Positions 6,894-53,033 of a stretch of DNA of 64,000 nucleotides are shown piece by piece (the first letter of the stretch is position 1; each line of letters starts with the position of its first letter). Source of the DNA: Eledone cirrhosa (taxonomy: Eukaryota); NCBI GenBank assembly GCA_964016885.1, contig OZ024740.1:359104001-359168000 (forward strand), read 5' to 3'. The notes under the pieces were generated by a model. That model made no database searches. It was not told the DNA's origin and saw only the letters and a program-made list of their open reading frames with translations. A program made the translations under genes and the position numbers.

Positions 6894-7193
6894 AGGCGCT
6901 CTAGAAATGATACCTAAGGGCTCTCATGATTACTTATCCCAAATCCCGAGAAACCCGTGTATAGAAGAGATACAAAAGATAGTACTAATGGGAACTGCCC
7001 ATATACTAAGGAAGATTCTGTCAATATAAATACATCACAAGTCTAAACACCTAAAGATGCATGTATGTGTGTATGTGTTGTTTCTTGAACATGGCGGACC
7101 TTGTTGTCTCTTGAGGTCACTGGTTGTGGCTTGGTGATAACTCGTATGAACATAAAGCAAAATAAATGAAATAATAATAATAATAATAATAAT
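6894..7193 (+). mobile_element. 3' fragment of R4/Dong-like RLE LINE family A with (AAT)n tail
   Basis: Encodes ...IQKIVLMGTAHILRKILSI*. Its 3'UTR is very similar to the reverse complement of 46352-46630 and it ends in (AAT)n. Confidence 0.85.
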
Positions 7194-10041
7194 GATTTCT
7201 TTATTGGCCACAAGGGCTGACATGAAGAAAAACATTAGAGACGGCACAGAACAGTAGAGGACGATACAAAGTGGGTTTTGGTCGTGTAAACAGGTTTTAA
7301 CAAAATCGGGCTAGAAATCCAAAAAAATTCAAACAACAAAAATTACCCAAGAAGGGTAAACCTCCGCGGGTCACTCATGGTGAAAACCACACAAAAGACC
7401 ACGGCCACCCTGACCACCATGGCAAGCGCCCTCTCTCACTTTTCCCATTCCTCAGTCTACAGGCGTATACTCAGAACGGGCCTATTCACTCGGACTAGAC
7501 TCGCCACTTTCACCCAGCTTTCAACAAACTTATTAAAAGACAGCACTTGTCTCTCCACCCTGATTTTCCTCTTCAAGTGAAACTTGAAAAAGTTAATCAA
7601 GGATTGGCCGGAGAGGAAAGTGTCCGTCTTCAACCCTTTCAATCTTGCCCACCACACAATCTCTTTCGTCATGGCCACCAGGCAGATGAAAACTGCCTGC
7701 CCTTCCACCTCTTTAAAGGAGGATGGCGGGGTTATCTGCACAATGGACTCAGTCGATAACCGGATCCGTCCTACAAGCGACAGTAGCTGTTCGACATAGC
7801 TCCACAAGTCAGCAATCCTCGGGCACTGAACGAGTGCGGGCAGGACGGTTTCGTTGCCCTGCGCGCATCTCGGACAGGCTCGGCTGACAGCACCTTCGTC
7901 CTTGTAGAGCTTATCCCGAACCCACAACGCTCCCCGGTAGCATTGCCAGGGATTTCTGGAAGTTGTCCATAGGCCCCGGTCTGAAAGTTCTCTTGAAGAG
8001 AGCGAACAGCTTATCGTCTTCGACGCGCAGGGTCTCCCCGAGATCGTCGTCACTCTTTCCCTCACCAAGCCCTCTATAGAACGCCGAGGTGAATATTCCA
8101 CTGATACTAGTGCCCAGCCGGTAGAGGGCGGTGAGCGCGTGGAGACATTCCGGCTACCAAGCGCTATCCCTCGGTCTTTTCCTGATCCAGGAATGGAGCT
8201 CCGTCAAGGAGACGAGCTGGGAAAAAGCGTGTCTGAGAAACGGCGACCATAGCTGTTCACCGTCAAGGAACCACCAGAGATGTCGCAGCCTCAGCGCATG
8301 TTTGCGCATCATCAGCCACGGCATGCCCAGCCCTTCACGCAACCCATTTATGGGTGAGAGAGGCCACCATGCTCTTCACCTCGCTCCAGTTTTTCTCCAT
8401 CTGGAGGTCCGGACCGAACCAGAACTCTAGCAATTTAACCGGTCCTTCCGTCCCGTGCCCCACGATGCAGTCGGACGGCATGGACTGGCCGCTCCAGGTG
8501 CCTAGTTGCAAGCCCACCGACTTTTCCGGCTTATATTTGCTCCTGTCACCGCTTCGTATTCATTGAGAGCGGTACTGAGCATCTGGACGTGTTTGGTGCT
8601 CGACACCACCAGGGTGACGTCGTCGGCGCAAGCTGACACGGATCTCCCGCATCCCAGTTCACATGAGAACCCCCTCATCGTCTCCAATTTGTGTAGTAAC
8701 GGCTCTAGGGCCAGTACATACAAGAGGGACCAGAGGAGGAAACCCTGGCGGACCGAGAGCATGATTCTGAAAGGCTGCGACAAGTGACCATTCACCCTCA
8801 CAATCGAGCAGATGTCGCTGTGCATCGCAGCGATCCAGCCCCTAAAAACAGGCCCGAATCCGGCCGCCTCGAGGACACAGACAGGTACTGATGGTCGACC
8901 CTATCAAATGCTTTAGATTAATCCAAGTCGATCACGGCCCCACTCGTGCCAGGTTCTTTAACCACCCTCTCTAGGATGTATCGCATGAGATGGAGGTTGT
9001 CGTGGATGGATCTGTCCGAAATGACGCATGTCTGCGCCTCTCCCACCAGATCACTGACAACAAGCGCCAATCTCTTTTCTAACACCTTGGCCAAAATCTT
9101 AAACTTTGCATTTAGCAGAGTTATGGGCCTGAAGTTGTCTATAACGTCCCCCTTGTTCAGGTCTTTTCTCAGCAGCGCCACCGCTCCCCGGCTCACAAAA
9201 CTGGGAATGCTCCGGTTCTGCTGCCAGTTGCAGTAGACATCTGCCAAAAGGTCGCCGAACAAGTCTGGCATATACGCATAAAGCTCGTAGGGCAGACCAT
9301 CCCCACCTGGCTATTTACCCCTTGTGCTGTCAGACATCGCTTCCCGTATTTCACCTGCTGTTATCGGCTTTTCGCAGCATTGCTCTGCGGTCTTAGTGAG
9401 CCGCGGCAGTCCGTCGAGGTATGCACCGAAGTCCATATTCCGATCCAGCCCGCCGCCGCTCCCGAACAATTGAGCAAAGTGCTGTTGAAAAGCCGCACAC
9501 ATCTGCTCGGGTTCGAGCAACATGCGCCCGTTTTGATCAGGCAAAGACCGAATTGTGGTCTTGTTGCCACGTCGCGCCTCCACCACCTAGGCCCATTGAA
9601 CGGCTTTCGTCCTTTCGTGTCCTAGAGCACGCGCTCTAGCTCTGACAACGCAGCCTTCATGCTTTGCGTTGAAGAATTGGTCGAGTGCCAATCTCGCCGC
9701 AAGCAGGTCGTTTGCGATGCCTGTCCTAAACGCCTCCTCTATCTCTACTCCTTTGCTAAACCTTATCGATTCTACTCTAATAGCCCTTTTCAGGGTAAAC
9801 CACCACCTGTTGTTGACGATCGCACCCATCAATGCACGCTTGACTAATTCGCTAATCCGGTCTCTGTAAGCTTTGCGCACCGGGAACGACGCCTTCAGCT
9901 TCCAGTAACCGGGCCCTTGCCTATGGAGTCTATCTAAGTCAACTTCACAGGTCACAAATGTGTGGTCCGTGTAGTCGACTACTTTAAATTGTCGACAACC
10001 TACACTAGCCTTATCTGTTTCCCTACAGAATACCCAATCTC
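7194..10041 (-). mobile_element. Tx1-clade LINE copy 1 (5'-truncated, diverged subfamily)
   Basis: Frameshifted ORF2 remnants: GPGYWKL, NFRPITLLNAKFKILAKVL, SACADDVT and C-terminal CPRCAQGNETV. 3' end CCCTTGTGGCCAATAAAGAAATC followed by (ATT)n; (ATT)n also lies at the truncated 5' junction. Confidence 0.92.
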
Positions 10042-10059
10042 AATAATAATAATAATAAT

Positions 10060-12613
10060 GCTTTCTTTATTAACCACAAGGGTTTACAGAGAGTAAAACA
10101 TTAAGGACAATACAGGACAATACAGGACGGTACAAATGGGCATTTCTGCGTGTAAAAAAAAAAGAAAACAGAGGATGTAACAAAAAAAGAAACAATGAAA
10201 AATTCTCCACTAGGGAGGAAACTTCCGAGAGACATTCGTGGAGAAAGCCCATTAAAAAAGCCACGGTGACCCTGACCACCAGGGCAAGTGCCCTCTCCCA
10301 GTTTTTCACCTTCAATTTATAGGCGCATACTCAGAGTAGGCCCATTCACTCGGGCCAGGCTTGCTTCTTTCACCCATCTTTCAACAAAATGCTGGGAAGA
10401 GAGCACTTCCCTCTCTACCCTGATTTTCCTTTTCAAATGAAATTTGATAAGGTTAATCAGGGCATCACCGAAGAGGTAAGTGGTCGTCTTCGGCCCTTTA
10501 AAACGTGTCCACCACACTATCTCTTTCGCCATGGCCACAAGATAGATAAAAACTGCCTGCCCTTCCCGGCTTAAAGAAGAGCGCGGAGCAATCCTCACAA
10601 TTGACTCAGCTGGTTGCCGGGTCCGTCCTACACGCGAGAGCAGGTGTTCGACATAAACCCACAAGTCAGCAATGCTCGGACACTAGACAAGTGCGTGCAG
10701 GACGGTTTTCGTCGCTCTGCGCACATCTCGGACATGCTCGGCTGACGGCACTTCCATGCCTGTAGAGTTTAACCCGAACTGGCAAAGCTCCTCGGTAACA
10801 CTGCCAAGCCAGAGATTTCTGGAAGTTGTCCATGAGTCCCGGCCCGAAAGTTCTCCCGAAGAGATGGGCTAGTTGATTTTCGTCGACGCCCAGAGTCTCC
10901 CCAAGGACGCCGTCGCTCTTTCCCTCCACTAAACCACTATAGAACGCCAAGGTAGAGTTTCCACCGATCGCATTGCCCGATTGGTCGAGGGCTGTAAGTG
11001 CCTGAAGACATTCCAGTTTCCAAGCGCTCCCTCTCGGTCTTCGTTTGACCCAGGACTGCAGCTCCGTCAAGGAGACGAGCTGGTGAAATACGCGTCTAGC
11101 AAACGGCGACTACACGTTATCACCGTCGAGGAAGAGGTGGAAATGCCGTAGCCTGAACGCATTTTTGCGCATCATCAACCACGGCATGCCCAGCCCTCCA
11201 TGTAGCGGGTGTTGACAGCAAACGGACTTCCTGACTGTCGGAGCGCGTCCCTTCGACAAAAGCGAAAGAGCAAACGCTCCAGCGTAGTCAAGCGAGGCTT
11301 AGGACAAGGCACGAAGGTCAGGTGGTAATAGATGACGAACTTTCAGGGATAGCTTCCTCTCGGCCCATTTCTGGGTGAGAGAGGCCACCCTGCTCATCAC
11401 ATCGTCCCAGTTTTTTTCCGTCTGGAGGTCAGGACCGAACCACATCCCTAGCAATTTGACCGGTCTGTCCAGCGCCCGATGACGCTGTTGGACGACATGG
11501 ACCTGCCTTTCCAGGTGCCGAGCTGTAGGCCCATCGACTCTTCCTGGTTAATCATTGCTCCTGTCACCGCCTCGTATTTTCTTAGTGTAGTGCCGATCGC
11601 CTCGATGTGTTTAGCATTCGACACCACTACGATGACGTCGTTGGCATATGCTGACACGGTTCTCCCGCATCCTAGTTCGCGCGGAACGCCGCTCACCGTC
11701 TCCATTTTGTGCAGTAATGTTCGAGAGACAATACGTACAACAGGGACTAGAGGGGATATCCTTGATCTAAATTGATCAAGGCACCTCCCGTGCCAGGTTA
11801 GTTAGCAACCCTCTCCACCATGTATCGCATAAGGTGGAGGTTGTCGTGGATGGATCTGTCTGGAATGGCACATGTCTGCGCCTCTCCCACCAGACCACCG
11901 ACGACAAGCGCCAACCTCTTTGATAGTACCTTGGTCAAAATTTTGAACTCTGCGTTTAGCAGAGTTATGGGCCTGAAATTATCTATCTTGTCTCCCTTGT
12001 TCGGGTCCTTTCTCAGCAGCGCTACCGCTCCACGGCTCACAGAGCTGAGAATTTTCCGGTCTGCTGCCATTTGCAGTAGTCGTTTGCCAAGACGTCTCGA
12101 ACAAGTCTGGCATGTGTACGTAAAGCTCGAAGGGCAGACGATCCAAACCAGGCGGTATACCCATCGTGCAGTCAATCATTGCTACTCGTATTTCAGCGAC
12201 TGTTATCGGCCTTTCGCAACGCTCCGTCTCAGTGGCCGAGAGCCGCGGCGGTCCGTCGAGGTAGGCGCTAAAGTCCATCCCGCGATCAGACCCACCGCTG
12301 CCCCCGAACAGCTGACCGAAGTGCCGCTGAAAAGCCGCACATATTTGCTCGGGTTCAAGTAACATACGCCCTTCGTAGTCCTCCAAAGACCGGATCGTGG
12401 CTTTGTTGCTATGTCACGCCTACGTCATTCGGGCCGATCGAACGGCTTTTGTCCCCTCGTTTCTGAGAGCACGCGCCCTAGCTCTGATAACGCAGCCTTC
12501 GTGCTTTGCGTTGAAGAATTGGTCGAGGGTCAATTTCGCCGCAAGCACGTCGGTTGTGATGCCTTTACTAAGCGACTGAACTAATTTTCTAACTAGTTCT
12601 CCCTCTGCTCTAT
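10060..12613 (-). mobile_element. Tx1-clade LINE copy 2 (3' part of ORF2 and 3'UTR)
   Basis: RT and C-terminal remnants, more decayed than copy 3, with an internal deletion near 11760. 3' end CCCTTGTGGTTAATAAAGAAAGC followed by (ATT)n at 10042-10059. Confidence 0.9.
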
Positions 12614-15600
12614 TCATTCGGCCCATACTTGCTTCTCTCACCCATCTTTCAACAAAATTCTGGGAAGAGAGCACTTCCCTCTCTAGCCTGATTTTCCTTT
12701 TCAAATGAAATTTGATAAGGTTAATCAGGGCATCACCGAAGAGGTAAGTGCTCGTCTTCAGCCCTTTCAAACGTGTCCACCATATTATCTCTTTCGCCAT
12801 GGCCCCCAGACAGATAAAAACTGCCTGCCCTTCCCGGCTAAAGGAAGAGTGCGGGGAAATCCTCACGATGGACTCAGCTGATAACTGGATCCGTCCTACA
12901 CGTGACAGCAGGTGTTCGACATAAACCCATAAGTCACCAATGCTCGGACACTGGACGAGTGCGTGCAGGACGGTTTCGTCGCCCTGTGCGCATCTCGGAC
13001 ATGCCCGGCTGACGGCACCTCCATGCCTGTAGAGTTTATCCCGAACTGGCAAAGCACCCCGGTAGCACTGCCAGGCCAGGGATTTCTGGAAGTTGTCCAT
13101 AGGCCCCGGCCCGAAAGTCCTTCCGAAGAGATTGGCTAGTTGATTTTCGTCGACGCCTAGAGTTTCTCCAAGTACGTCGTCGCTCTTACCCTCCACTAAT
13201 CCTTTATAGAACGCCAAGGTGGAGTTTCCACCGATCACATTGCCCGATTGGTCGAGGGCTGTGAGCGCCTGAAGACATTCCAGTCTCCAAGCGCTCCCTC
13301 TCGGTCTTCGCTTGACCCAGGACTGCAGCTCCGTCAAGGAGACGAGCTGGGGAAAACGTGTCTAGCAAACGGCGACCACACCTGATCACCGTCGAGGAAG
13401 AGGTGGAGATGTCGTAGCCTGAGCGCGTGTCTGCGCATCATCAGCCACGGCATGCCCAGCCCTCCACGTAGCGGGTGTTGACAGCAGATGGACCGCCTGA
13501 CGATCGGAGCGCGTCCCTTCCACAAGAAGCGAAAGAGCAAACGCTCCAGCGCAGTCAGGCGGGGCTTAGGACAAGGTACGACGGTCAGGCGGTAGTAGAT
13601 GGCGGACGCGATGTACGCGTTAGCCACCTCCGCTCGACCTTTCAGGGATAGCTTCCTCTCGACCCTGCTCGTCACCTCGTCCCAGTTTTTGTCCGTCTGG
13701 AGGTCTGGACCGAACCAGACCCCTAGCAATTTAACCGGTCCGTCCGTCCAGCGCCCGACGACGCTGTTGGACGGCATGGACCTGCCTCTCCAGGTGCCGA
13801 GCTGCAGGCCTACTGACTTTTCCTGGTTGATCATTGCTCCTGTCACCGCTTTGTATTCTCTTAGTGTAGTGCCGATCGCCTCGATGTGTTTGGCGTTCGA
13901 CACCACTACGGTGACATCGTCGGCATATGCTGACACGGATCTTCCGCATCCTAGTTCGCGCGGGACGCCCCTCAACATCTCCAGTTTGTGCAGTAATGGC
14001 TCGAGAGTCAATACGTACAATAGGGACGAGAGGGGACATCCTTGGCGAACCGAGCGCATGATGTTGAACGGTTCCGAAAGGTGACCGTACACTCTCACTA
14101 CAGAGCAGATGTCGCTGTGCATGGCAGCGATCCAGCCTCTGAAGACGGGCCCAAACCCAGCCGCCCTCAGGACTGTCGCTAGGTAACGATGGTCGACCCT
14201 ATCGAAGGCTTTCGACTGATCTAAATTGATCAAAGACCCACCTGTGCCAGGTTCCCTAGCTACCGTCTCTACGATGTATCGCATGAGGTGGAGGTTGTCG
14301 TGGATGGATCTGTCGGGGATGGCGCATGTCTGTGCCTCTCCCACCAGACCACCAACGACAAGCGCCAACCTCTTTGCTAGCACCTTGGCCAAAATCTTGA
14401 ACTCTGTGTTTAGCAGAGTTATGGGCCTAAAATGATCTATGTTATCCCCCTTGTTCGGATCCTTTCTCAGCAGCGCCACCGCTCCTCGGCTCACAGAGCT
14501 GGGAATTCTCCCGTTCTGTTGCCAGTTGCAGTAGACGTCCGCCAAGAGGCCTCCGAACAAGTCTGGCATTTGTACGTAAAGTTCATAGGGCAGACCATCC
14601 AAACCAGACGATTTACCCCTTGTGCAGCCAGTCATTGCCTCCCGTACTTCAGCGGTTGTTATCGGCTTTTCGCAACACTCCGCCTCAGTGGCCGAAAGCC
14701 GCGGCAGTCCGTCGAGGTAGACACTAAAGTCCATCCCTCGATCCGGCCCGCCACTGTCCCCGAACAGTTGAGCGAAGTGTCGCTGAAAAGCTTCACACAT
14801 TTGCCCGGGATCGAGTAGCATGCGCCCGTCGTAGTCCACCAAAGACCGGATCGTGGCTTTATTGCCACGACGCGCCTCCGCCACTCGGGCCCATTGAACG
14901 GCTTTCGTCCCCTCGTGTCTGAGAGCACGCACCCTAGCTCTGACAACGCAGCCTTCGTACTTTGCATTGAAGAATTGGTCAAGGGCCAATTTTGCCGCAA
15001 GTACGTCGGTCGCGATGCCTTTGCTAAGCGCCTCGTCTAATTTTCTAACTAATTCTCCTTCTGTTCTATTTTTCTCTATTGCTAAAGCCTTACTAAACCT
15101 AATGGACTCTATTCTAATTGCTCTTTTCAGAGCAAACCACCACTTGTTGTTGACGATGGCCCCCGTCAACGCCCGCTTAACTAGTTCGCTAATCCGGTCT
15201 CTGTAGGCCTTGCGCGCTGGTAAGGACGCGTTTAGCTTCCAGTAGCCGGGTCCTCGTCTATGAAGCCTATCTAAGTCAAGCACACAGATCACGAATTTGT
15301 GGTCCGTGTAGCTGACTATCTTGAATTGTGGACAGCCTATGCTAGACCTATCTATTTCCCTACAAAATACTCTATCTAGATATGATCTGGATGACCATAT
15401 GCGATTTGTCCAAGTCTACATCGGTACATTCGGGAAATCCATTCGGTACCTGTCAGACAGTTCGAAACGCCTGAGCAGGTTGGTGAGACTCTTGCACCCT
15501 CCTTCCCTATCCACTAATCCCACACAATCCCAGCGGGCATCTAAGATCCCGTTCCAGTCGCCCACTAACACTAAAGAGTGGGACGTTCCAAGAAAGGTCT

Positions 15601-15979
15601 CCAGACGCCGGAAGAAATCAGGCCGCCCTGCTCCTGTCGGGGCATAGACGGCCACTAACCTGAAAGCTTTCCCGTCTCCGCTAGTCACGTCCAGCACCAG
15701 CAACTTACCTTCTGGGTCCAGGAAGATGGCCCGTATGGCAAGATCCAAACCTCTCCGAAAAAGTACAGCAACTCCTCCCCACGATCCCGGACGGCTGGGA
15801 GATGCGTACACATCGTAGCCGCCGAAGATCGGTGCGAAGGCCCGTGCTTCGGAGATTCTGGTCTCGCTGATGGCCACTACATCTTTGTTTAGTGACCTGA
15901 GGTCGTTGAGCAGATGGCCCTGCTTCCATGACGACCCCAAGCCACAGGCATTTATGCTGCCTATTCTGAGTGAGGTCAT
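12614..15979 (-). pseudogene. Tx1 ORF2: APE endonuclease, reverse transcriptase and C-terminal Cys/His motif
   Basis: MTSLRIGSINACGL, VAISETR, LVGDWNG (APE); LDQSKAFDRVDH, SVRQGCPLS, SAYADDVT (RT); CPRCAQGDETVLHALVQC. Stop at 15416 (TAG where copy 4 has TGG) and a frameshift near 13335. Confidence 0.93.
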
Positions 15980-17966
15980 GTTGAAAAGGAGTGGAAAAGA
16001 TGGGAAAGACTACTTCCCTTACTTCTCGTAGGGGAAGGACGGTTTTTCCATCCTTTTCACTGCTTGTGGCCTCCTCAGGAAGGATGTCCTTATAAATCCT
16101 CCTGGAGAGTGCTTGTCGGAAGTCTCCGATATCTTTGGGGAATTTTTGTTTTAGTGTCATGTATGTTTTCTGTGTGATGCGAGTGATTTGTATGTGTGGA
16201 GGTGGTGTGAATTTTTGGGTTGTTGTGTAGTCCTTTTCTGTGATGCTGGTGTTGTGTTGGATGTAGTGTAATAATTGCTTGTTGTTCAAATTTAATGCTG
16301 TGTAGTGTGTATCGTTTTGGTTGTTTTGTTTTGTTTGCGTTTGTTGTGGGTTTGTTTCTGTTTCGCATTTTGGTGACTTTTGTGGTGTAGGTGATGGTGG
16401 TGTTGGGGTTAATGATGGTGATGGTGTTGGTGTTTGGGTTGATGGGGTTGGTGATGCTGGTGTGGATGGTGGCATATCTGTCCTAACTTTTTTGTTTGTT
16501 AATTTATTTGTTTCCCTCTGTATTTTGTTTTTGGAGGGGGAAGGAAGAGAATTTTTTCTTTTTTGGTTTCTTTTTTTTTTCCTGATACCGTTTCCCACTC
16601 CTCGTCGTCACAATCTGTCTCCAGTTGTGATAGGCCGGGGAGTGGAAAATCCTCCACAGGCGTTAGTTTTGGTTGTGGCGTGGTGGATGGTGTAGGCGCT
16701 GGTGCTAGTTCTGAAGCGTTGGGTGGTGGTGGTGTTGGTTTTGCTACTGTTGCTGGGGTTGTTGCTGTTATAGTTGCTTCTGTTGTTGCTGCTACAGTTG
16801 TTGCTGCCATCTCTGCTACTGGTGGTGTTGATGGTTGTGTCACTGGGGTGGGTAGGAGAGGTGGCCTCAACCTTTTAGCCTGAGGGCAGAAAGCCCTTAG
16901 GTGGGTTCCTTCACCACAAACGACACACCTAGGCCTTCTGCCTTCGACAATTACGGTGAGGTGGCTGCCGTCAGTGAGGTCTATTACCTCTGGGATCTCC
17001 TCGATGCTTTTTTGGTCCGCTTGGATCAGGAGCTCCATCCCAGATCCGGACCAGTTCTCCTGCTTTTCTTTTGCTATTGCTATTATCTTTGTGTTGGCTT
17101 CGATGCCGGCGAGGACGGCCGCTATTAGCCAGGGAATTTCGATGGCCGGTGGAACGTGGGTCACCCTGATCTTTACGAGTCTCTGGCCACAATAGCTTGG
17201 GACGAGTGTGAAGTCGTCACTTCTTAATGGGGCCATGAAGTGTTCTCTAGCCTCCTCTGGTGTTTCAAAGAACACGTCCACGGTTCCATACTTCTGTCCA
17301 CGTCTGATGTGGGTTTTTCTTGCCCACACATGTCCCAAAGCTTTTTGGATTTGGGACTCGGATGCCCGTTCCACTTGGCGCGATTTTACATTAATTGTTC
17401 GATACGACACGGTGCATAGGCGCCGATGCTCCATTTTATTAGGTGGGGGTGAGGCTGACCCTGTACCCATCTTTCTTTACCATTTTTTTGGCATTTTCTA
17501 ATTTTTCCTGAGTTACCGTAAATACTTCGCACTGTTTTGCTACTCTGGCAAAACTCAGGGTGGTTTTTTTAATGTCATCGTTGCTGTTGTTGTTATCGTT
17601 ATTTTTAATTTTAGTTTCAGTTGTGGTGGTGGTGCCGTCAGTGGTGTTTGGTCTGGATGAGTCCATTTTGGTTGAAAACATTTCGACATCACGAGTTGAT
17701 TTATTTTTTCCTTTTGTTTCTGTTGTCGCGGTGGTGGTGGTGGTGGGGGTTGTCACGGTGGTGGTGGTGGTGGCGGCTTTAACACCTGCAGTCATTGGTA
17801 ATGGCGGGAAATGAATGTCTGCCTGAGACAAATTTAAAATATTGCTACTGCTTATATTTTTTTTAGTGTTGGCAAACGTAGAAACATTTGCAATGGTGGT
17901 GTCGGTGTTAGGTGTTAATTTGTGATGAATGCTCTCAGCTGCTTGGTGCAGAGGTGCATTAGCCAT
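15705..17966 (-). pseudogene. Tx1 ORF1 (gag-like, zinc knuckle), split over three frames
   Basis: CVVCGEGTHLRAFC is a CX2CX4HX4C knuckle flanked by Thr/Pro-rich linkers. Frame changes fall near a C-run (~17445) and an A-run (~16575). Confidence 0.85.
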
Positions 17967-18186
17967 TTTTTTTCAAAGAAATCTTTTGATAATCATAAAA
18001 GTTTAAATTTTGGGCACAAGGCCCCAATCTTTTCGGAAACCAATGTATGTGCGCTTATATATAGTTAACAATAAAAATTTTCCATAAATGGCAATTTTTA
18101 ACAAATGGAAATAACAAACCTTTGCTGAGCTCACGATGATACGATTTACTACGTAGATCGCCAATAATAATAATAATAATAATAAT

Positions 18187-18739
18187 GCAAAGTAAACAAT
18201 TTACCACATTCTGAGAAGTGGTATGAGCATAAGCCAAAGTCGGTGATAGAAAACGAGCAGGTGAAAGTGTTGTGGGATTTTAGGATACAGACGGACAAGA
18301 AACTGGAACACAATAGACCTGACCTGGTGGTTTTGGACAAGGAAAAAAGATCGTGCCTGTTTGTGGATGTGGCCTGCCCATTCGACACGAGAGTGCAAGA
18401 GAAGGAGAGGGAGAAAATTAACCGATACCAGGACTTAAAGTGGGAGGTAAAAAGGATTTGGAACTGCCATGAAGTCAACGTGGTCCCGATTGTCATAGGC
18501 GCACTAGGTACTATCTCAAAGAGTTTCCAGGTATAGTTAAAGAAAATTGGCCCCGCCACGCTTTTTGGAACGCTTCAAAAGGCATGCTTGCTGGGAACAA
18601 CAAGAACCCTCCGATACGTCCTGAATATCTGAGGCTGCAGGTAGTGGCTTGATATTCATTTCAACAAACTTTCCAATTAACTAACATCAATGACTGAGAC
18701 TCAAAGAACAACAATAATAATAATAATAATAATAATAAT
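18187..18739 (+). mobile_element. 3' fragment of R4/Dong-like RLE LINE family B, (AAT)n on both sides
   Basis: VLWDFRIQTDKKLEHNRPDLVVLDK...VDVACPFD...EKINRY is a restriction-like endonuclease PD..D motif. Homologous to 45830-46327. Confidence 0.9.
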
Positions 18740-19569
18740 AGCAAACAGACTTGGGACTGATTAAAAAATCAATGTCTATCCATTGAAACTATGCAGGAGC
18801 TACATTTCAACCATAGTGTGTATAATCAAATGTTATCATGTAGGAATCAAGCATTCGATGAAGCATCTGACATTGATCGATTATAAACTCAGTTTCATTT
18901 TCAATGTTTTCTCTTTTACAAAATATATTTCTACATATTGTCTAATGCATTCTAAACAGAACCCTGACTATTTAATGACGGCATGTTATTCCAATAAAGA
19001 AATGCCTGTGTAATTATTATAACACTTTGAACAAATATTGTCATTGAGTACTATTTTTATGCTCACAAATTTATCGATATATTTATATTTTAATTTGTGT
19101 GTGTTTGTGTTTGAGCCTGTGTTCTTGTGTGTATGTGTGTGTATGTTTGCTCATGTTTGTGTATGCACGTGTGTATGCGTGTATTTGCGTATATGTTGTG
19201 AGAACCAATAAAATTTGCTTCTCTTCCATATATATTTTTTACATATGTTTTTACTATTTTCATTCATCTGACTACGATCATTCTGCAGCTTTGCGTCAAT
19301 TCAGTCGATAATATCGGTCACAGTACATATTGTTTCAAGACTAATACTTAGTTTATAGTTGCCTCTTTCGTGGAACTGCTAAATTATTGGGTACAGATAC
19401 AGACACAAACATAAACACATACATAGGTGGACACACACATACATTCAAACATATGCATACCCACAAACACAAACACTGATGCACACTCACACGCACAAAC
19501 ACCATTAAATTAATATATATCTTCATTGCACTGTATATTTTTGGTGTTGTTCATCCGTTTAGTTCTTGC

Positions 19570-24387: not shown

Positions 24388-24512
24388 GGAAAATGTTAGA
24401 CCCCCCCCCCCACCCGACGGCAGAGCTCAACCCGTTTCGACGGCTATTTCTGGACTGGACTCTACTACCTAAGTATTGAGTACTCTGGTGCGTTATGGTT
24501 CATCTGGTTCCA
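24388..24512. mobile_element. Half-hammerhead fold-back element, partly collapsed copy
   Basis: Short arm (CCCGACGGCAGAGCTCAACCCGTTTCGACGGCTATTTCTGGACT) fused to the distal part of the long arm, directly after (TA)n. Confidence 0.75.
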
Positions 24513-24588
24513 CGTTTGTTTAAAATATATACATATATATATAGATAGATAAATATACACGGGTGTGTATGATTGTTGATAGAAGATT

Positions 24589-24927
24589 GTATTAATAAGA
24601 GGAATTCCAACTTTGTCTGATTTACTTGTTTTATTTACAATCCTTTAAAATTTATAATGGTATTATAATGAAATAGTATGATAGAATATTAAATGTTAAG
24701 TGTTAATTGAACAAGTACGTTCATGCTTTCGCAATCTTCAGGTTCATAATGTGTGGTGACAGTCAAGTTTGCAATGACAATTGCAAACTTGACTGTCACC
24801 ACACATGTTCAATTAACACTTAACATTTAATATGCTATCATACTATTTCATTATAATACCATTATAAATTTTAAAGGATTGTAAATAAAACGAGTAAATC
24901 AGACAAAGTTGGAATTCCTCTTAATAC
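24589..24927. repeat. Fold-back (inverted repeat) Penelope-type remnant with a degenerate hammerhead at 24708-24746 (-)
   Basis: Arms are reverse complements around TTGCAA-TGACAA-TTGCAA. Only the left arm keeps, on the minus strand, TGAAC CTGAAGA TTGCGAAAGCAT GAACGTACTT GTTCA. Confidence 0.8.
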
Positions 24928-25007
24928 ATTTCTTTGTGTGCTTGTGCATGTATATATAAACGCACACATGCGCGTATGTATAATACGTATATATATATAT
25001 ATATATA

Positions 25008-25200
25008 TAACGAAGGAAATGTGGTAAGGAACCAGGTGGACCATAACGCACCAAAGTACTCAATACTTGAGGTAGTAGAGTGGGTAATAGGAACCAGTAA
25101 GACCCCGACAGCTGAGCTCAAGCCGTTTCGACGGCTAATTCTGGACTGAATTAGCCGTCGAAACGGCTTGAGCTCAGCTGTCGGGGTCTTACTGGTTCCT
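25008..25200. mobile_element. Half-hammerhead fold-back element, complete palindromic copy in (TA)n
   Basis: Long arm 25008-25141, loop TGGACT, short inverted arm 25148-25200; (TA)n on both sides. Confidence 0.85.
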
Positions 25201-25313
25201 ATATATATATATATACATATATGTGTGTGGGGGGGGGGGGGGTTCAATCGGGGGTAACCAGAGTATGTAAGGTACTCAATACATAGCAGAGTATAAATAT
25301 TTAATATAGAAAT

Positions 25314-34819: not shown

Positions 34820-34853
<34 letters not shown>

Positions 34854-34897
34854 ACGGCTTGAGCTCTGCCGTCGGGGTCATACTTTCTCTTATTTTT

Positions 34898-34900
<3 letters not shown>
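34603..34900. mobile_element. Half-hammerhead fold-back element with microsatellite in the loop
   Basis: Long arm 34603-34746, (CA)/(TG)/(TA) block, short inverted arm 34853-34900. Confidence 0.8.
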
Positions 34901-34936
<36 letters not shown>

Positions 34937-34939
<3 letters not shown>

Positions 34940-35120
34940 AAAAATAGGAAAAAGTATGACCTCCGACGGCAGAGCTCAAGCCGTTTCAACGGCTTTGTCT
35001 TAGAATAGCCGTCGAAACGTCTTGAGCTCTGCCGTCGGGGTCATACTTTTTACTATTATCCTAAGTATTGAGTACTCTGGTGCGTTATGGTCCATCTGGT
35101 TCCTTACCACAATTCCTTCG
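34937..35120. mobile_element. Half-hammerhead fold-back element, palindromic copy in the opposite orientation
   Basis: Short arm, loop near 34995-35006, then long arm ending TTCCTTCGTA; follows (TA)n. Confidence 0.82.
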
Positions 35121-41712: not shown

Positions 41713-41911
41713 ACGAAGGAAATGTGGTAAGGAACCAGGTGGACCATAACGCACCAAAGTACTCAATACTTGAGGTAGTAGAGTGGGTAATAGGAACCAA
41801 TAAGACCCCGACAGCTGAGCTCAAGACGTTTCGACGGCTAATTCTGGACTATTTTAGTCCAGAATTAGCCGTCGAAACGGCTTGAGCTCTGCTGTCGGGG
41901 TCTTACTGGTT

Positions 41912-41914
<3 letters not shown>
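41711..41914. mobile_element. Half-hammerhead fold-back element, complete palindromic copy in (TA)n
   Basis: ...GACGGCTAATTCTGGACTA-TTT-TAGTCCAGAATTAGCCGTC GAAACGGCTTGAGCTCTGCTGTC GGGGTC... Confidence 0.87.
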
Positions 41915-41961
<47 letters not shown>

Positions 41962-42055
41962 TATATATATAGAGATATATTTATTAAAATAACAGATTAA
42001 AGTTTAAGCAAAGAATCGCTGCTCCTTGGATTTTAGTCTTCAAATTTATTATTAT

Positions 42056-42156
<101 letters not shown>

Positions 42157-42203
42157 TATATATATATATATATATATATGCATATATATATATATATATA
42201 TGC

Positions 42204-42240
<37 letters not shown>

Positions 42241-42293
42241 CATATATATATATATATATATATGCATGTATATATATATATATATTTACATAC

Positions 42294-42801
42294 TTTAGCA
42301 GAAAAAGCTTGGACGCTCAGGGATAGCGATCAGAAGTTTACCCTAAAATGGGAAAAATTAGCTAAAACCCAAAGCTTTTCCAGGAGCCAAAATTTCTGCA
42401 AATTGTGTAATCTTGAGATTTATTACATAATCACACACAAGAAGAAACTGCTGAATAACAGAATTGAACGAACATTATTCTGCCGTCACAGAACTAAAAC
42501 CCTTTTTTCCCACTACAAGCCGAATATTACATAAAAGAGGGACATCCCCCAACTATATAAACCTTAATCTAGTTAGAAAAATATAAAAACAATCTCTTCT
42601 CAACATATATTAATAACCTTAAATTATCACACTAATAATGGAAAGATATACTGATGAGAATAGGTGCAAATATGCGATAATGAATGTGTCTAAAAACGTC
42701 CATAAGTATGTATATATATGTGAAAATGTATATAAATAAGTAAATATATATATATGTTTGATGTGTATAGTTAGATGTAAGTGTATTCATGTATTAAAGT
42801 G

Positions 42802-43560: not shown

Positions 43561-43641
43561 ACATATATATATATATATACATACATATATATATTTATAC
43601 ATACATATATATACATACATACATACATATATATATATATG

Positions 43642-43715
<74 letters not shown>

Positions 43716-44675: not shown

Positions 44676-45829
44676 TCGATATACATTTATATATATATAT
44701 TAGGGTGTCCCTTAGCAATAGGTAATTTTCGGAAATTTTTAAAGCTTGCTCCTCCCATCCACCCACTAATCCTGTCTCGATCAACAACAACACGGGGTGT
44801 GCAACATTTCATGCCAATCGAACAACTGTTAGGTGACCCTCAAACGCCTTGTATTTGGAATATAGTATACGCAACGATTAATTCTGTTCAAAAGCGGTAT
44901 ACTGTCCCCTATCTCGACCATTTTCTTTTTTCTTATTAGAGAAATTTATGTGGACACATCCAGGCAACCCCAGCAAATGTTTAAAAACATTCTGAATCAA
45001 ATTTACTAATAGTTAATTTGAAACATTCCTGAAATAACATGAAAAACTTAATAAATATTAGCTTTTCTTTATAAAACACACAACTTCTATAAGAGAAACG
45101 CATTTTTATTTACAACAATAATTTCTATAGAATCAAAAACATAATGTGAATACTGAGCACTGAATAATGAACATTATTTTTGCACGAAAGGATTCAGAGA
45201 CACATCGGTATGTTTTACGGTTTTCGTTAACGATCTATGAAACAAATCGTAACCTTAATCCCTAACCCTAATATATATATCAGAATGTGTTGGTCTAGTG
45301 AAAGAGTGGGATTTGTGAGAGAGATGTAGTGGGATATAGAGAGGAGGTGAGAGTTTATTAGTCTAGTGAGAGTGGGGATTTAAGATGTTCAAAGGGAGTG
45401 ATGTATGTAGGGGAATATAAAGGAGGGTGAGAGAATTTGGTGGTCTAGTGAGAGACCACCAAATTTGCTGGTTAATTTCATGAGTAGGCTGTTCCGTTGA
45501 TAGTATCAACTGGAACACTCGTCGTCGTAACTGATGGAGTGTATGTGCTTATATGTGTGTGTGTTAATATATGTGTATGCCTGTGCCTATATACATATGT
45601 GTGTGTCTATGTATCTCTCTATATATTAGGAGTTTCCCAAACACTGATTAGAATGGTGTTGAAGTGTGTATACATTTTTTGGGACACCCTCTATGTATGT
45701 GAGTGTGTATGTATATATATTTATTCATATATACACGCACACATATATATATATACAGATCGAACCTTTAGGTGATCAATAGCGAAACATGAGTCATTAC
45801 TCAATAAGCGTAATGATGACATAACAAAT

Positions 45830-46327
45830 TATCATTGTTCTTTGAGTCTCAGTCATTGGTGTTATTGAACTGGAAAGTTTGTTGAAATGAATATCAAACT
45901 GCTACCTGCAGCCTCAGATATTCAGGACGTATCGGATGGTTCTTGCTGTTCCCAGCAAGCATACCTTTTGAAGTGTTCCAAAAAGCGCGGCTGGACTAAT
46001 CTTCTTTAACCATCCTTGGAAATTCTTCGAGATAGTACCTAGTGCGCCTATGACAATCGGGACGACCTTGATTTTATGGCTGTTCCAAATCCTTTTTAAC
46101 TCCCACTTTAAATCCTGGTATCGGTTAATTTTCGCCCTCTCCTTTTCTTGCACTCTCGTGTTAAATGGGCAGGCTACATCTACAACCAGGCACGATTTTT
46201 TTCCTTGTCCAAAACCACCAGGTCGGGCCTATTGTGTTCTAATTTCTTGTCCGTCTGTATCCTAAAATCCCATAGCACCTTCACCTGATCGTTTTCTATC
46301 ACCGACTCTGGCTTATGCTCATAACAC
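45830..46327 (-). mobile_element. 3' fragment of R4/Dong-like RLE LINE family B
   Basis: YEHKPESVIENDQVKVLWDFRIQTDKKLEHNRPDLVV...GTARTIRYVLNI*. 5' junction lies at the (TTA)n tract 46328-46351. Confidence 0.9.
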
Positions 46328-46351
46328 TTATTATTATTATTATTATTATTA

Positions 46352-48364
46352 CAGTTGCATTTATCTTGCTTTATGTTCATACGAGTTATCACCAAGTCAC
46401 AACCAGTAACCTCAAGAGACAACAAGGTCCACCATGTTCAAGAAAGAACATACACACACACATGCATCTTTAGGTGTTATGACGTGTGATGTAATTATAT
46501 TGACAGAATTTTCCTTAGTATATGGACAGTTCCCATTAGTACTATCTTTTGTATTTCTCCTATACGCGGGTTTCCTGGGATTTGCGATAAGTAACCATTA
46601 GACCCCTTAGGTACCATTCCTAGAGCGCCTACAACCACTGGTATTGTTTTAGTTCTCAATTTCCACAGTTTTCCAATTTCTATCCCCAGGTCCTTATAAT
46701 TGCTCAATTTTTCAAATGTTTTTATAGATACATTCTTGTCTATTGGAACGGACATATCGATTAGCAGGCATACCCTCTTTTTAAAGTCCTTCAGTATTAT
46801 ATCAGGTCTATTTGCATCTATTTTTCGGTCTGTTTGGATGCAAAAGTTCCACAAGATTGAGATGTGATCTTTTTCAAGTATGGGAGGTGGTTGATGCTCC
46901 CACCAATTCTTTTGATGGAGCAGGTCAAAATGCTTACACATTATCCAATGTATGTATTGTGCAGCTCTGTCATGCCTCTTTAGGTATTCTGTTGGAGCTA
47001 TAGGACTGCACATTGAAATTATATGATCAATGGTCTCTGGTTGTTTTTTACATACACGGCATAATGGGTTGCATCCATTTTTTATTATGTTGGCTTGGTA
47101 ATTTTTTGTTGGCAGACACTGATCTTGTGCTGATATAATCAGTCCTTCAGTCTCCGATTTCAGTCCAGAGGATGCCAACCACTGATGGGTTAAAGTGTCG
47201 TCAACATCAGGATTGTTAGCTCTTTCTGGGTATTTTCCATACAGAGGCTTTTCTTGCCATTTCTTAGCCAGTTTCTGTAGCAGTTCTTTCTTTGCAGTTA
47301 CTTTTACCTGCTTTGCTTTTTTTGTGTTTTCCATTTCAGCAGTAAATAGGACTTCTGAAATTTGTAGTCCATTACTGTATCTTTGTGCATCTTTTGTAAT
47401 GGAGTATGATCTTTAGATGCTTTCATGTTTCAAAACGAGTTTGATCATCCAATCATGTGATTCACTTAGATATGGAGATAATTCAATTGTTGTAGTTTTC
47501 AACGCAATATCTAACTGGATTAACCCACGTCCTCCTTCTTTCCTAGGGAGATATATTCTATTTGTATCTGCCTTGGGGTGATGCATTCTCTGCATGGTTA
47601 AGAATTTTCTAATTTTTGTATCGAGACTACGGATCTCTGTGCTTGACCAGTTGATGACATTGTAACTCTAGGTTACTACTGGTATGGCAAGCGTGTTTAT
47701 GGCATCGATCCTATTCCTTGCATTCAATTCCGTTCTTAAGATTGCTCTTACTCTGCGGTAACATTCCTTCCTTATCCTTTCCCTCATTGTCGTGTGCTTG
47801 ATTCCGTCTCCTTCACAAACACCTAGATATTTGTAAGTTTCCTCTTGATCAAGTTCTCTTATCACATTCCCCCGATCAAGATTAATTTCTGAACTTTTCA
47901 GCAGCTTTCCTCTGGTGAACGTTGCTTTGGCGCATTTATCTAGTCCAAACTCCATTTTAATGTCATCACTGAACTGCTCCACAGTGGATAATAGCCCTTG
48001 CAATTGTTCATCATTTTTTGCAAATAGTTTCAGGTCATCCATGTAGAACAAGTGATTAATGGTTTTGTCATAGACTTTATATCCATGTTTTGTTTCATTG
48101 AGCATTTTACTTAATGGTATAAGTGCGATGCAGAATAAAAGCGGTGATAAATTCCACAATTAATATTAACTTCTCCAGCTTACAGTGATTTGTTTTTCAC
48201 TATTCAAAAGGAGTGTCGTTTTCCATGTCTTCATACTGAATGACAGGAACCTCCTGACAACGGGAGATATTTTGAAAATCTCTAAACATTTATTCAATCC
48301 AACTGTGAGGCAAACTATCGAATGCTTTTTTATAATCTATCCAAGCAATTGATAGATTTTTGTG
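46352..48364 (-). mobile_element. R4/Dong-like RLE LINE family A, 5'-truncated
   Basis: SIAWIDYKKAFDSLPHSW, HLFYMDDLKL (RT), CRVCKKQPETIDHIISMC (CCHC), RHD and NRPDII..D (RLE). (AAT)n at both ends in element sense. Confidence 0.92.
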
Positions 48365-48384
48365 TTACTATTATTATTATTATT

Positions 48385-51300
48385 GGCGACCTACGTAGGA
48401 AATCGTATCATCGTGAGCTCCGCAAAGGTTTGTTGTTTTCAGTTGTTTCAAATTACCATTTATGGAAAAAAATGTTTGTTAAGTGTTTATAAGGTCACAA
48501 AATTTGCTTTCGGAAAAGGACACTCAAAAAGATTAGGACCTTCAGCCCAAAATTTAAACTTTTATAATTATCAAACAAAAAATTAGTTTTAAAAAAACAT
48601 GGACGACTCACGGCTACACCAGGTGACAGCCTTCCTCACAAACTAACACCTCACACCAACACCACCATTGTAAATATTACTACGTTTGCCAACACTAAAA
48701 ATATAAGCAGTAGCAATAATTTAGATTTGTCTCATGCAGACATTCATTTCCCGCCATTACCAAAAACTGCAGGTGTTGAAGCCGCCACCCTCACCACCAC
48801 CACAGCGAAAACAGAAACAAAAAAATAAAAATAATTATCTCGTGACATCGAAATAGATTCACCCAGAATCGACTCTTCCACACCGAACACCACTGACGCC
48901 ACCACCACCACAACTGAAAATAAAAATAAAAATAACAAAAATAACAATGACAACAACAGCAACAACAACAATGAGAATAACAATACCGTGTCTTTGCCAA
49001 AGCAACCAAAAAATGCGAAACAATCCAGGTAACTCAGGAGGAATTGGATGAAGCCAAGAGAATGGTAAAGAAAGTTAGGTACAGGGTCAGCCTCAACCCC
49101 CCCCCCCACACACACACACACGCACAACTAATAAAATGGAGCATCGGCGCCTATGCACCGTGTCTTATCGGACGATTAACATAAAATCGCGCCGAGGGGA
49201 TGGGCATCCCAGTCCCAAATCCAAAAAGCTTTGGGACGTGTGTGGGCAAAAGAAAACCCACATCAGACGTGCGCGCTGAAATATGGAACCGTGGGCGTGT
49301 TCTTTGGAATACCACAAGAGGCCAGAGAGCACTACATGGCCCCATTAAGAAGCGACGACTTCACACTAGTCCCAAGCTAGTTTGGCCAGAGACTCGTAAA
49401 GATCAGGGTGACCCACGTTCTACCGGCCATCGAAATTCCCTGGCTATTGGCTGCCGTCCTCGCCGGCCGCATCGAGGCCAACACCAAAGTAATAGAAATA
49501 GCAAAAGAAAAGCAGGAGAATTGGTCCGGATCTGGGATGGAGCTCCTGATCCAAGTACACCAAAATAGCATTGAGGAGATCCCAGAGGTAACAGACCTCA
49601 CTGACGGCAGCCACCTCACCGTAATCGTCTAGGGTATAAGGCCTAGGTGTGTCATTTGTTGTGAGGGAACCCACCTAAGGGCTTTCTGCCCTCAGGCTAA
49701 AAGGTTGAGGCCACCTCTCTTACCCACCCCAGTGACTCAACCATCAACACCACCAGCATCAGAAATGGCAGTAACAACAGAAGCAACTGTAGCAGCAACA
49801 GTAACAAAACCAACACCACCACCACTCAACACGCCAGAACTAGCACCAGCGCCTACACCATCCACTACGCCACAACCAAAACCAACGCCTGTGGAGGATT
49901 TTCCACTCCCCGACCTATCGTAACTGAAGACACATTGTGGCGACGAGGAGTGGGAAACGAAGTCAAAAAAGAAAAAATCCTCTTCCTTCCCCCTCGAAAA
50001 ACAAAATACAGAGGGAAACAAATAAACTATCAAACAAAAATGTTAAGACAGCTATGCCACCATCCACACCAGCATCACCAACCCCATCACCACAAACACC
50101 ACCACCATCACCATCATTAACCCCAACACCACCATCACCAACACCACAAAGGTCACCAAAAAGCGAAACAGAAACAAACCTACAACAAACGCAAACAAAA
50201 CAAAACAACCGAAACGATAGACACTACACAGCATTAAATTTGAACACAACCAATTACTACACTACATCCAACACAACACCAGCATCACAGAAAAAGACTA
50301 CACAACACCCCAAAAGTTCACACCACCTCCACACATACAAATCACTTGCATCACACAGAAAACGTACACGACACTAAAACAAAAATTCCCCAAAGACATC
50401 TAAGACTTCCGACAAGCACTCTCCAGGAGGATTTATAAGGACATCCTTTCGGAGGAGGCCACAAGCAGTGAAAAGGATGGAGAAACCATCCATCCTCTAC
50501 GAGAAGTAAGGTAAGTGGTCTTTCCCATCTTTTCCACTCCATTTCAACATGACCTCACTCAGAATAGGCAGCATAAATGCGCGTGGCTTGGGGTCGTCAT
50601 GGAAACAGGGCCACCTGCTCAACGACCTCAGGTTGCTAAACATAGATGTAGTGGCCATCAGCGAGACCAGAATTTCCGAAGCACGGGCCTTGGCACCAAT
50701 CTTCGGCGGCTACGATGTGTACGCATCTCCCAGCCGTCCTAGATCAGGGGAGGAGTTGCTGTGCTTTTACGGAGAGGTTTGGATCTCGCCATACGCGGCA
50801 TCTTCCTGGACCCAGAAGGTAAGTTGGTGGTGCTGGACGTAACCAGCGGAGACGGGCAAGCTTTCAGGCTAGTGGCGGTCTATGCCCCGACAAGAGCAGG
50901 GCAGCCTGATTTCTTCCGGCGTCTGGAGACCTTTCTTGGAACGTCCCGCTCTTTAGTGTTAGTGGGCGACTGGAACGGGATCTTAGATGCACGCTGGGAC
51001 TGTGTGCGATTAGTGGATAGGGGAGGAGGGTGCAAGAGCCTCACCAACCTGCTCAGGCGTTTTGAACTGTCTGACAGGTACCGATTGGATTTCCTAAATG
51101 TGCCAATGTGGACTTGGACAAACCGCGTCGGGTCATCCAGATAATATCTAGATAGAGTATTTTGTAGGGAAATAGATAGGTCTAGCATAGGCTGTCCACA
51201 ATTCAAGACAGTCAGCTACACGGACCAAAAATTCGTGATCTGTTTGCTTGACGTAGATAGGCTTCATAGACGAGGACTCGGCTACTGGAAGCTAAACGCG

Positions 51301-53033
51301 TCCTTACCAGCGCGCAAGGCCTACAGAGACCGTATTAGCGAACTAGTTAAGTGGGCGTGGCTTGCTCTCAAAAGAGCGATTAGAATAGAGTCCATTAGGT
51401 TTTCTAAGGCTTTAGCTATAGAGAAAAATAGAGCAGAGAGAGAACTAGTTAGAAAATTAGACGAGGCGCTTAGCAAAGGGATCGCGACCGACGTACTTGC
51501 GGCGAAGACTGCGTTGTCAGAGCTAGGGTGCGTGTTCTCAGACACTACGGGCGCATGCTACTCGATCCCGGGCAAATCTGTGAAGCTTTTCAGCGACACT
51601 TCGCTCAGCTGTTCGGGGGCAGCGGTGGCCGGATCGAGGGATGGACTTTAGTGTCTACCTTGACGGACTGCCGCGGCTCTCGGCCACTGAGGTGGAGTGT
51701 TGCAAAAAGCCGATAACAGCCGCTGAAGTACTGGAGGCAATGACTGTCTGCACAAGGGGTAAATCGCCTGGTTTAGATGTTCTGCCTTATGAACTTTACG
51801 TACAGATGCCATACTTGTTCGGAGTCCTTGTTGGCGGACGTCTACTGAGGCGGAGTTTTGCGAAAAGCCGATAACAGCAGCTGAAGTACAGGAGGAAATG
51901 ACTGGCTGCACAAGGGGTAAATCGCCTGGTTTGGATGATCTGCCCTATTAACTTTACGTACAGATGCCAGACCTGTTCGGAGGCCTCTTGGCGGACGTCC
52001 ACTGCAACTGGCAACAGAACGGGAGAATTCCCAGCTCTGTGAGCCGAGGAGCTGTGGCGCTGCTGAGAAAGGATCCGAACAAGGAGGATAACATAGAAAA
52101 TTTCAGGCCCATAAGTCTGCTAAACACTGAGTTCAAGATTTTGGCCAAGGTGCTAGCAGAGATGTTAGCGCTTGTCGTTGGTGGTCTGGTGGGAGAGGCG
52201 CAGACATGCGCCATTCCCGACAGATCCATCCACGACAACCTCCACCTCATGCGATACATCGTGGAGAGGGTAGCTAGGGAACCTGGCACGGGTGGATCCT
52301 TGATCAATTTAGATCAGTCGAAAGCTTTCGATAGGGTCGACCATATTTACCTAGAGGCTGTCCCGAGGGCGGCTGGCTTTGGGCCCGTCTTCAGAAGCTG
52401 GATCGCTGCCATGCACAGCGACGTCTGCTCTGTGGTGAGAGTGAACGGTCACCTTTCGGAACCGTTCAACATCATGCGCTCGGTCCGCCAAGGATGTCCC
52501 CTCTCGTCCCTCTTGTACGTATTGACTCTCGAGCCATTACTGCACAAACTGGAGACGTTGATGGGAGGAGGTCCCGCGCGAACTAGGATGCCTGATACCC
52601 GTGTCAGCATATGTGGACGATGTCATCGTAGTGGTGTCGAACGCCAAACACATCGAGGCGATCGGCACTACACTGAGAGAATACGAAGCGGTGACAGGAG
52701 CAATGATCAACCAGGAAAAGTCAGTGGGCCTGCAGCTCGGCACCTGGAGAGGCATGTCCATGCCGTCCAACAGCGTCGTCAGGCGCTGGACGGATGGACC
52801 GGTTAAATTTCTAGGGGTCTGGTTTGGTCCGGATCTCCAGACGGACAAAAGCTGGGACGAGGTGACGAGCAGCGTGGCTTCTCTCATCCAGAAATGGGCG
52901 GAGAGGAAGCTATCCCTAAAAGGTCAAGCGGAGGTGGCTAACGCGCACATCGCGTCCGCCATCTACTACTGCCTCACCGTCGGGCCTTGTCCTAAGCCTC
53001 GCCTGACTGCGCTGGAGCGTTTGCTCTTTCGCA
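48385..53033 (+). mobile_element. Tx1-clade LINE copy 4: intact 5' end, decayed, 3' end missing
   Basis: Begins GGCGACCTACGTAG after (ATT)n and is colinear with 18162-13480. Has internal deletions near 51360-51545 and a ~160-bp tandem duplication at about 51690-51995; stops at LERLLFR. Confidence 0.93.

Follow-up and report, generated by a model that had tools for sequence, protein, structure and literature searches.

Two clusters of L1/Tx1-type and Dong/R4-like retrotransposons in Eledone cirrhosa, probably built by repeated insertion through (AAT)n tracts on opposite strands

Can two kinds of long interspersed nuclear element (LINE) with unrelated endonucleases use the two strands of one microsatellite as their target? 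This question is raised by a stretch of 64,000 nucleotides from Eledone cirrhosa (assembly GCA_964016885.1, contig OZ024740.1, positions 359,104,001 to 359,168,000), hereafter called the window, in which self-comparison and translation revealed eight LINE copies gathered in two clusters (6894-18740 and 45828-53033) and chained through (AAT)n tracts. Four of the copies were assigned to the L1/Tx1 type, with an apurinic/apyrimidinic endonuclease (APE), and are named Tx-1 to Tx-4; the other four are classed as Dong/R4-like, with a restriction-like endonuclease (RLE), and fall into the families RLE-A and RLE-B. Taken together, the evidence suggests that the two clusters are separate pile-ups of these copies, probably built by repeated targeted insertion through (AAT)n, with the two kinds of element using opposite strands.

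Cluster layout and the tracts at element ends

On the plus strand, cluster 1 reads RLE-A1, (AAT)8, Tx-1 reversed, (AAT)6, Tx-2 and Tx-3 both reversed, (AAT)8, RLE-B1 and (AAT)9, and cluster 2, read on the minus strand, runs from an antisense Tx-4 through (AAT)5, RLE-A2, (AAT)8 and RLE-B2 to a degenerate tail, AATGATAAT (Table 1). This is the order of copies, strands and tracts that had been listed in the original prediction, and the RLE-A1 fragment at 6894 indeed has no AAT at its 5′ junction, as had been noted there. The strand rule of that prediction also holds for all eight copies: at every tract, RLE copies read AAT and Tx copies read ATT, without exception.

The window contains 11 AAT/ATT tracts of at least four units, six of them at cluster junctions. 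A tract adjoins the 5′ junction in six of the eight copies, via four distinct tracts, against a background of 107 of 44,947 positions outside the clusters (0.24%) that lie within 3 nt of a tract of at least four units; chance would give four or more such junctions among eight with a probability of 2e-9, a figure that takes no account of how the window was chosen. Perfect tracts are also found at five of the six surviving 3′ ends, the sixth being the degenerate tail of RLE-B2, and Tx-3 and Tx-4 are both without 3′ ends. The expectation that each insertion leaves a tract on both sides is not borne out throughout, given two tract-less joins and the one degenerate tail.

These counts bear on the simplest alternative, in which abundant LINEs built up untargeted in a repeat hotspot, the tracts arose as 3′ tails and by slippage, and adjacency came about by chance. 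In its favour, read mapping in four runs put the summed contig depth of the three families at 2e5-9e5, where unique flank contigs reached 12-14 (a depth, not a copy number). Moreover, Octopus vulgaris has transposable element (TE) hotspots, and Dong-R4 and L1-Tx1 are among its recently active LINEs, according to the available parts of PMC13282606. However, two of the tracts, T3 and T5, have a 5′ end on either side and therefore are not 3′ tails, the elements meet the tracts to the base, and the strand rule is followed at all six tract-bearing 5′ ends. The low probability of the junction counts argues in the same direction, as do the Penelope-like and RTE-like copies of the window, which are not chained through tracts. 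We therefore consider chance adjacency highly improbable and the clustering real rather than an artefact.

Table 1. Elements and tracts of the two clusters, in window coordinates (UTR, untranslated region; ORF, open reading frame; RT, reverse transcriptase)
Feature	Position	Strand	Description	Comparison
RLE-A1	6894..7169	+	3′ fragment of Dong/R4-like element: last 44 codons and 3′ UTR	90% to RLE-A2; tblastn
T1 (AAT)8	7170..7193	+	tail-to-tail junction RLE-A1 / Tx-1	
Tx-1	7194..10041	-	5′-truncated L1/Tx1-type copy; internal deletion near 8340	most divergent copy (81-83%)
T2 (AAT)6	10042..10059	+	Tx-only head-to-tail junction: Tx-2 3′ end / Tx-1 truncated 5′ end	
Tx-2	10060..12614	-	3′ part; internal deletion near 11763; tract-less join to Tx-3	second Tx subfamily
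Tx-3	12612..18162	-	near full-length; 5′ end intact; ORF1 and ORF2; 3′ UTR lost	
T3 (AAT)8	18163..18186	+	head-to-head junction: Tx-3 5′ end / RLE-B1 truncated 5′ end	
RLE-B1	18187..18712	+	5′-truncated Dong/R4-like copy	second RLE family
T4 (AAT)9	18713..18740	+	between RLE-B1 3′ end and unique flank	
RLE-B2 tail	45828..45836	-	degenerate, AATGATAAT	
RLE-B2	45837..46327	-	5′-truncated; truncation about 27 nt further 3′ than RLE-B1	90% to RLE-B1
T6 (AAT)8	46328..46351	-	between RLE-A2 3′ end and RLE-B2 truncated 5′ end	
RLE-A2	46352..48368	-	2-kb 5′-truncated copy: partial RT, CCHC knuckle, PD..D restriction-like endonuclease	
T5 (AAT)5	48369..48384	-	head-to-head junction: Tx-4 5′ end / RLE-A2 truncated 5′ end	
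Tx-4	48385..53033	+	intact 5′ end; internal deletions; 160-bp tandem duplication; 3′ part lost	

Separate origin of the two clusters

Duplication is a real rival to separate assembly, because all three cross-cluster pairs (Tx, RLE-A and RLE-B) are about 90% alike. Under this alternative, one old inverted duplication, or a co-mobilised chimera consisting of an antisense Tx, AAT and RLE-B, was later joined by RLE-A and more Tx copies; consistent with it, both clusters read from a Tx 5′ end and a tract to an RLE-B copy of about 500 bp, and the truncation points of the two RLE-B copies are close together. The substitutions between Tx-3 and Tx-4 speak against it. Over the 1005 codons compared, 78 of the 174 single-change codons are synonymous and 96 nonsynonymous, whereas re-dealing the same substitutions (2000 permutations, with a floor of p=0.0005) gave a null synonymous fraction of 0.28 (p=0.0005), and the excess recurs in each of four coding segments (p 0.0005-0.04). 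As a control, the tandem duplicate inside Tx-4 (51686-52004, 90% alike) is neutral, with 4 synonymous and 11 nonsynonymous changes (4/15, p=0.46). The synonymous excess indicates that Tx-3 and Tx-4 came from different active lineages.

Two further observations argue against a common origin. Self-comparison detected no flank shared between the clusters on either side, and each RLE-B copy has its own repeat, resembling a target duplication, that matches its own 3′ flank. For RLE-B1, GCAAA follows both flanking tracts (18187-18191 and 18741-18745; 5 nt, null 1.0%), and for RLE-B2, TGTTATG follows both the tail (45826-45820) and the 5′ tract (46326-46320; 7 nt, null 0.08%). The test for such repeats was devised after inspecting the copies, and GCAAA is also element coding sequence; both repeats take the form that target duplications with 5′ microhomology would have. 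The two clusters did not arise from a single duplication, and Tx-3 and Tx-4 are of independent origin; the earlier argument against a simple duplication is now supported by the Tx synonymous excess, the unshared flanks and the separate repeats at each RLE-B. A shared inverted duplication or chimera is thereby largely refuted, and we give it very little credence.

Identity of the elements and their use of the tracts

Dong/R4 elements are marked by a C-terminal CCHC knuckle followed by a PD..D restriction-like endonuclease. The corresponding motifs, conserved in the alignment, are CRVC..H....C and RPD..D..K..Y in RLE-A2 and RPD..D..K..Y in RLE-B1, and an amino acid identity of 39% over the endonuclease region separates RLE-A and RLE-B into two families. 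A full-length homolog with 56% identity to RLE-A2 (P0004) matches only R2 proteins in the PDB (E 4e-34), and a search for an APE domain in this homolog and in a second one (P0008) found none. Both families are accordingly classed as Dong/R4-like on motifs and structure matches.

All four RLE copies are 5′-truncated and so end short of the region where the N-terminal Myb-like domain and 5′ HDV-like ribozyme of the clade would be expected. A sense-strand AAT tract lies at three of the four 5′ ends. The same preference is seen outside the source genome, in relatives of RLE-A on animal contigs from three metagenome bins, where 15 of 36 homology-block 5′ ends have sense (AAT)3 or longer in the 120 nt upstream of them and one of 36 has the reversed ATT (background 0.2-0.4%); many of these blocks are internal pieces of decayed copies, and the count omits eight further blocks at locus edges. 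Downstream, AAT is present at 17 of 44 blocks and ATT at none. Locus L007 (E 7e-4), whose relationship is doubtful, was excluded. Chains of the form RLE-AAT-RLE-AAT also occur among these relatives, and a scan of viral contigs for RLE elements gave no match. The loci L001-L006 and the bins G001-G003 belong to GTDB bins labelled as bacteria that hold animal contigs, with LINEs and SINE-like repeats (short interspersed nuclear elements), as host contamination. Dong-type targeting of TAA repeats by the RLE families, as the original prediction had it, is thus upheld both in the window and among relatives elsewhere, and this half of the pattern is known Dong behaviour: in the accessible portions of PMC3812793, PMC7998251 and PMC3774820, Dong elements of insects, molluscs and cnidarians insert in (TAA)n.

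The Tx copies carry an ORF2 with an APE domain (PF03372, E 2e-9), a reverse transcriptase (PF00078, E 6e-28) and a C-terminal zinc finger (PF13966, zf-RVT, E 3e-8). The closest solved structure to the endonuclease is L1 EN, and the RT falls in the L1 group, matching L1 ORF2 at E 2e-37 versus R2 at E 3e-19. ORF1 is RNA-binding-like with a CCHC knuckle (CX2CX4HX4C), and its Atlas matches are CCHC and ZCCHC3 RNA-binding clusters at 0.90-0.93; we take this combination to mark Tx1 rather than vertebrate L1. On these domains, motifs and structure matches, the copies are assigned to the L1/Tx1 type. The closest named homolog of the RT is from Argonauta hians (71% identity), which, together with the (TA)n, Penelope-like and RTE-like remnants of the window, makes an octopod host likely. 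ORF2 of Tx-3 is interrupted by stops and frameshifts. Because the copies are 81-94% alike in pairwise comparison, this Tx “family” comprises at least three subfamilies. The window matched no Rfam family, and the Tx 5′ end showed no ribozyme-like fold (z-scores -0.2 and 0.9). Neither Tx relatives nor the Tx 5′ motif turned up in scans of metagenome and viral collections. A match to ATTATTATTGGCGA beside an RLE copy in G002 was dismissed as chance, as no Tx element follows it.

Tx-1 has tracts on both sides, and its 3′ UTR ends in AATAAA, 6 nt and (ATT)n. Tx-3 and Tx-4, whose 5′ ends are both intact, begin at the same base directly after (ATT)n, and the register ATT, element, ATT is kept at three of three tract-bearing 5′ ends (both full-length copies and the truncated Tx-1) and at both surviving 3′ ends. 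The junction at T2 joins Tx copies of different subfamilies (81% alike), which implies that a Tx copy met an ATT tract without any RLE element. In the available text of PMC4494074, a family counts as target-specific when one sequence type makes up >20% of flanks genome-wide; within the window alone, ATT is found at three of four Tx 5′ ends and two of two surviving Tx 3′ ends, among four copies. The claim that APE and RLE families share one target therefore holds for the RLE families and, for Tx, as far as the three 5′ ends that abut (ATT)n; a trait of the whole Tx family is more than these four copies support.

The main alternative is that only the RLE families target (AAT)n, and that Tx elements carry (ATT)n as a 3′ tail and a 5′ terminal repeat, insert untargeted and supply landing sites for RLE elements; T2 would then stem from a template jump, or else from microhomology to the tail of a different copy. 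In both full-length Tx copies (ATT)n comes right before the same first base, the partner at both head-to-head junctions is an RLE element, whose targeting has independent support, and no Tx target duplication was seen, all of which this alternative would accommodate, as it would the lack of an ATT preference in distant Tx relatives. Against it stands Tx-1, which although 5′-truncated keeps the register with (ATT)6 at its 5′ end, lies between two tracts and differs in subfamily from the adjoining Tx-2; moreover, variation of a 5′ repeat from 5 to 8 units points more simply to target DNA. We thus regard a repeat carried by Tx as unlikely, and it is likely that a Tx1-type family has here acquired (ATT)n as a new target and so arrived at the one used by Dong.

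The most probable account is targeted insertion by both kinds of element, in which target-primed reverse transcription would start from one strand of (AAT)n for the RLE elements and from the other for Tx. The RLE enzyme would nick the ATT strand and the APE enzyme the AAT strand at the T-A step (AAT/AAT), as judged from the register; a T-A step is the kind of bond cut by the L1 endonuclease. Orientation and register may be set by pairing of the RNA repeat tail (UAA for RLE, AUU for Tx) with the nicked strand, and truncated 5′ ends may be joined by short microhomology. Tail and target duplication would together regenerate a tract at both ends and so seed the next insertion, and later deletions could account for the two tract-less joins.

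Several observations weigh against this account. Two of the eight 5′ junctions have no tract (the RLE-A1 5′ end and the Tx-2/Tx-3 join), and no target duplication beyond the tract was found for Tx-1 or RLE-A2, which leaves two of the four copies tested with one. The synonymous excess is not significant for RLE-B (14/32, p=0.053) or RLE-A (5/13, p=0.18); both shares lean the same way as in Tx-3/Tx-4. The species holds very large numbers of copies of each of the three families, for which reason neighbouring copies are to be expected. Both clusters pair an RLE 5′ end with a full-length Tx 5′ end and carry an RLE-B of similar length at the far end, and the model gives no reason for either. For Tx, the evidence consists of four copies in one window that was chosen for this pattern, and distant relatives (43-46% amino acid identity) from another animal, which lie in tandem arrays or dispersed, terminate in AATAAA followed by a short sequence and have no ATT at their ends, so that the trait would be particular to the Tx lineage of the window.

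It is tempting to speculate that an octopod Tx1-type lineage acquired a strand-specific preference for (ATT)n, in which it cuts the opposite strand of Dong's microsatellite, and that at least three subfamilies have retained this preference. Alongside two Dong-like families, all of them very abundant, it would then assemble mixed arrays, head-to-head as well as tail-to-tail, that renew themselves genome-wide and generally drive the formation of TE hotspots and AAT tracts in octopuses. We hold this broader scenario only tentatively, as a plausible extension that falls somewhat short of being the expected outcome.

Surroundings, known parallels and significance

The window is rich in (TA)n and in Penelope-like and RTE-like remnants. 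Penelope-like remnants lie at 28050-30331 (-), 56675-57736 (-), 42037-42534 (+) and 31474-31980 (+), with GIY-YIG matches at 28053-29618 (weak) and 31474-31977, and a 555-bp inverted repeat (55912-56466 / 57748-58302, 99% identity) encloses a Penelope-like reading frame. An RT-bearing LINE remnant of another type, presumably RTE-like by its motifs, lies at 32868-34220 (+) and does not adjoin an AAT tract. Hairpin elements resembling miniature inverted-repeat transposable elements (MITE-like) stand beside (TA)n runs at 24459-25222, 34853-35057, 41790-41916 and 53097-53378, the last at the point where Tx-4 is cut off. In animal contigs carried by a bacterial bin (G002, contigs C3-C19; e.g. L038-L049), intact L1/Tx1-type elements form long head-to-tail arrays with an open 1158-aa ORF2 and a period of about 6.4-6.8 kb; units are 98-99% alike within an array, several distinct families are represented, no microsatellite separates the units and truncated units start right after the preceding 3′ end, which suggests self-targeted tandem insertion.

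In the read data, the right flank matches the same species without differences, and a contig of a related organism (run X4, record 16) follows this flank (18765-19070) at about 90% and then continues leftward for 218 letters without a listed match; it possibly represents an empty site, and RLE-B is scarce in this run. No empty-site joint was present among the 15 joints shown of about 5,275 in the read mapping. Large piles of loose ends at 14976 and 18415 in a restriction-site-associated DNA (RAD) run fall at AATT sites, and read starts in that run fall at GCATGC sites; both are library artefacts.

Among known elements, the RLE copies resemble the Dong and Dong-like R4 clade (Bombyx Dong, DongAg, DongBg, Darwinula Dong1/2 and Octopus Dong-R4) in their RT, C-terminal CCHC and restriction-like endonuclease and in being flanked on either side by (TAA)n in sense orientation. 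They differ in that here two RLE families share tracts with an APE-type element. The Tx copies resemble Tx1-clade LINEs such as Kibi and Koshi in their two ORFs, ORF1 CCHC, ORF2 with APE, RT and zinc finger, and fixed orientation in a simple repeat. Microsatellite targets described for this clade in the accessible parts of PMC4494074 and PMC10088271 are (TC)n for Kibi, (TTC)n for Koshi and (TTCC)n/(TTTC)n for crocodilian families, besides the telomeric Tx1-1_ACar; here, in contrast, the target is (ATT)n, the host is a cephalopod and the target is shared with RLE elements on the other strand.

Neither target sharing between APE and RLE elements nor opposite orientation in one repeat is new in itself. 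As described in the available part of PMC4640811, the lineages of Keno (APE) and Utopia (RLE) converged on U2 snRNA genes, that is, on the same site in a gene, whereas here the two types lie in opposite directions in a renewed microsatellite. SART and TRAS occupy the Bombyx telomeric repeat in opposite orientations and form arrays (PMC10088271, in the part available); both are R1-clade APE elements at telomeres, whereas the present arrays are interstitial and combine different enzyme classes. No ATT/AAT-targeting Tx1 family and no Tx1-Dong chain was found in the literature as far as its text was accessible, and Repbase Reports, Kojima and Fujiwara 2004, or the supplements of PMC4494074, PMC13282606 and PMC9115989 may record one. 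The accessible portions of PMC4640811, PMC3747384, PMC11203168, PMC10294476, PMC9004415, PMC8869645 and PMC9115989 contain no report of an ATT-targeting Tx1, and three short motifs from the window are absent from four of the eight supplementary files of PMC9115989. With the RLE half already known, the Tx half is likely the new part, on thin numbers.

If the pattern is true genome-wide, (ATT)n would join the short list of targets of APE-type LINEs, and there would be a case in which one microsatellite is exploited by two unrelated endonucleases, one on each strand. The Tx/RLE pair offers a clean test of whether enzyme specificity or pairing of the RNA tail sets the insertion site and orientation. 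The same process would explain how LINE hotspots form in octopus genomes while genes are spared from abundant elements. Anyone using AAT microsatellites as markers in these animals should then expect them often to lie at LINE ends.

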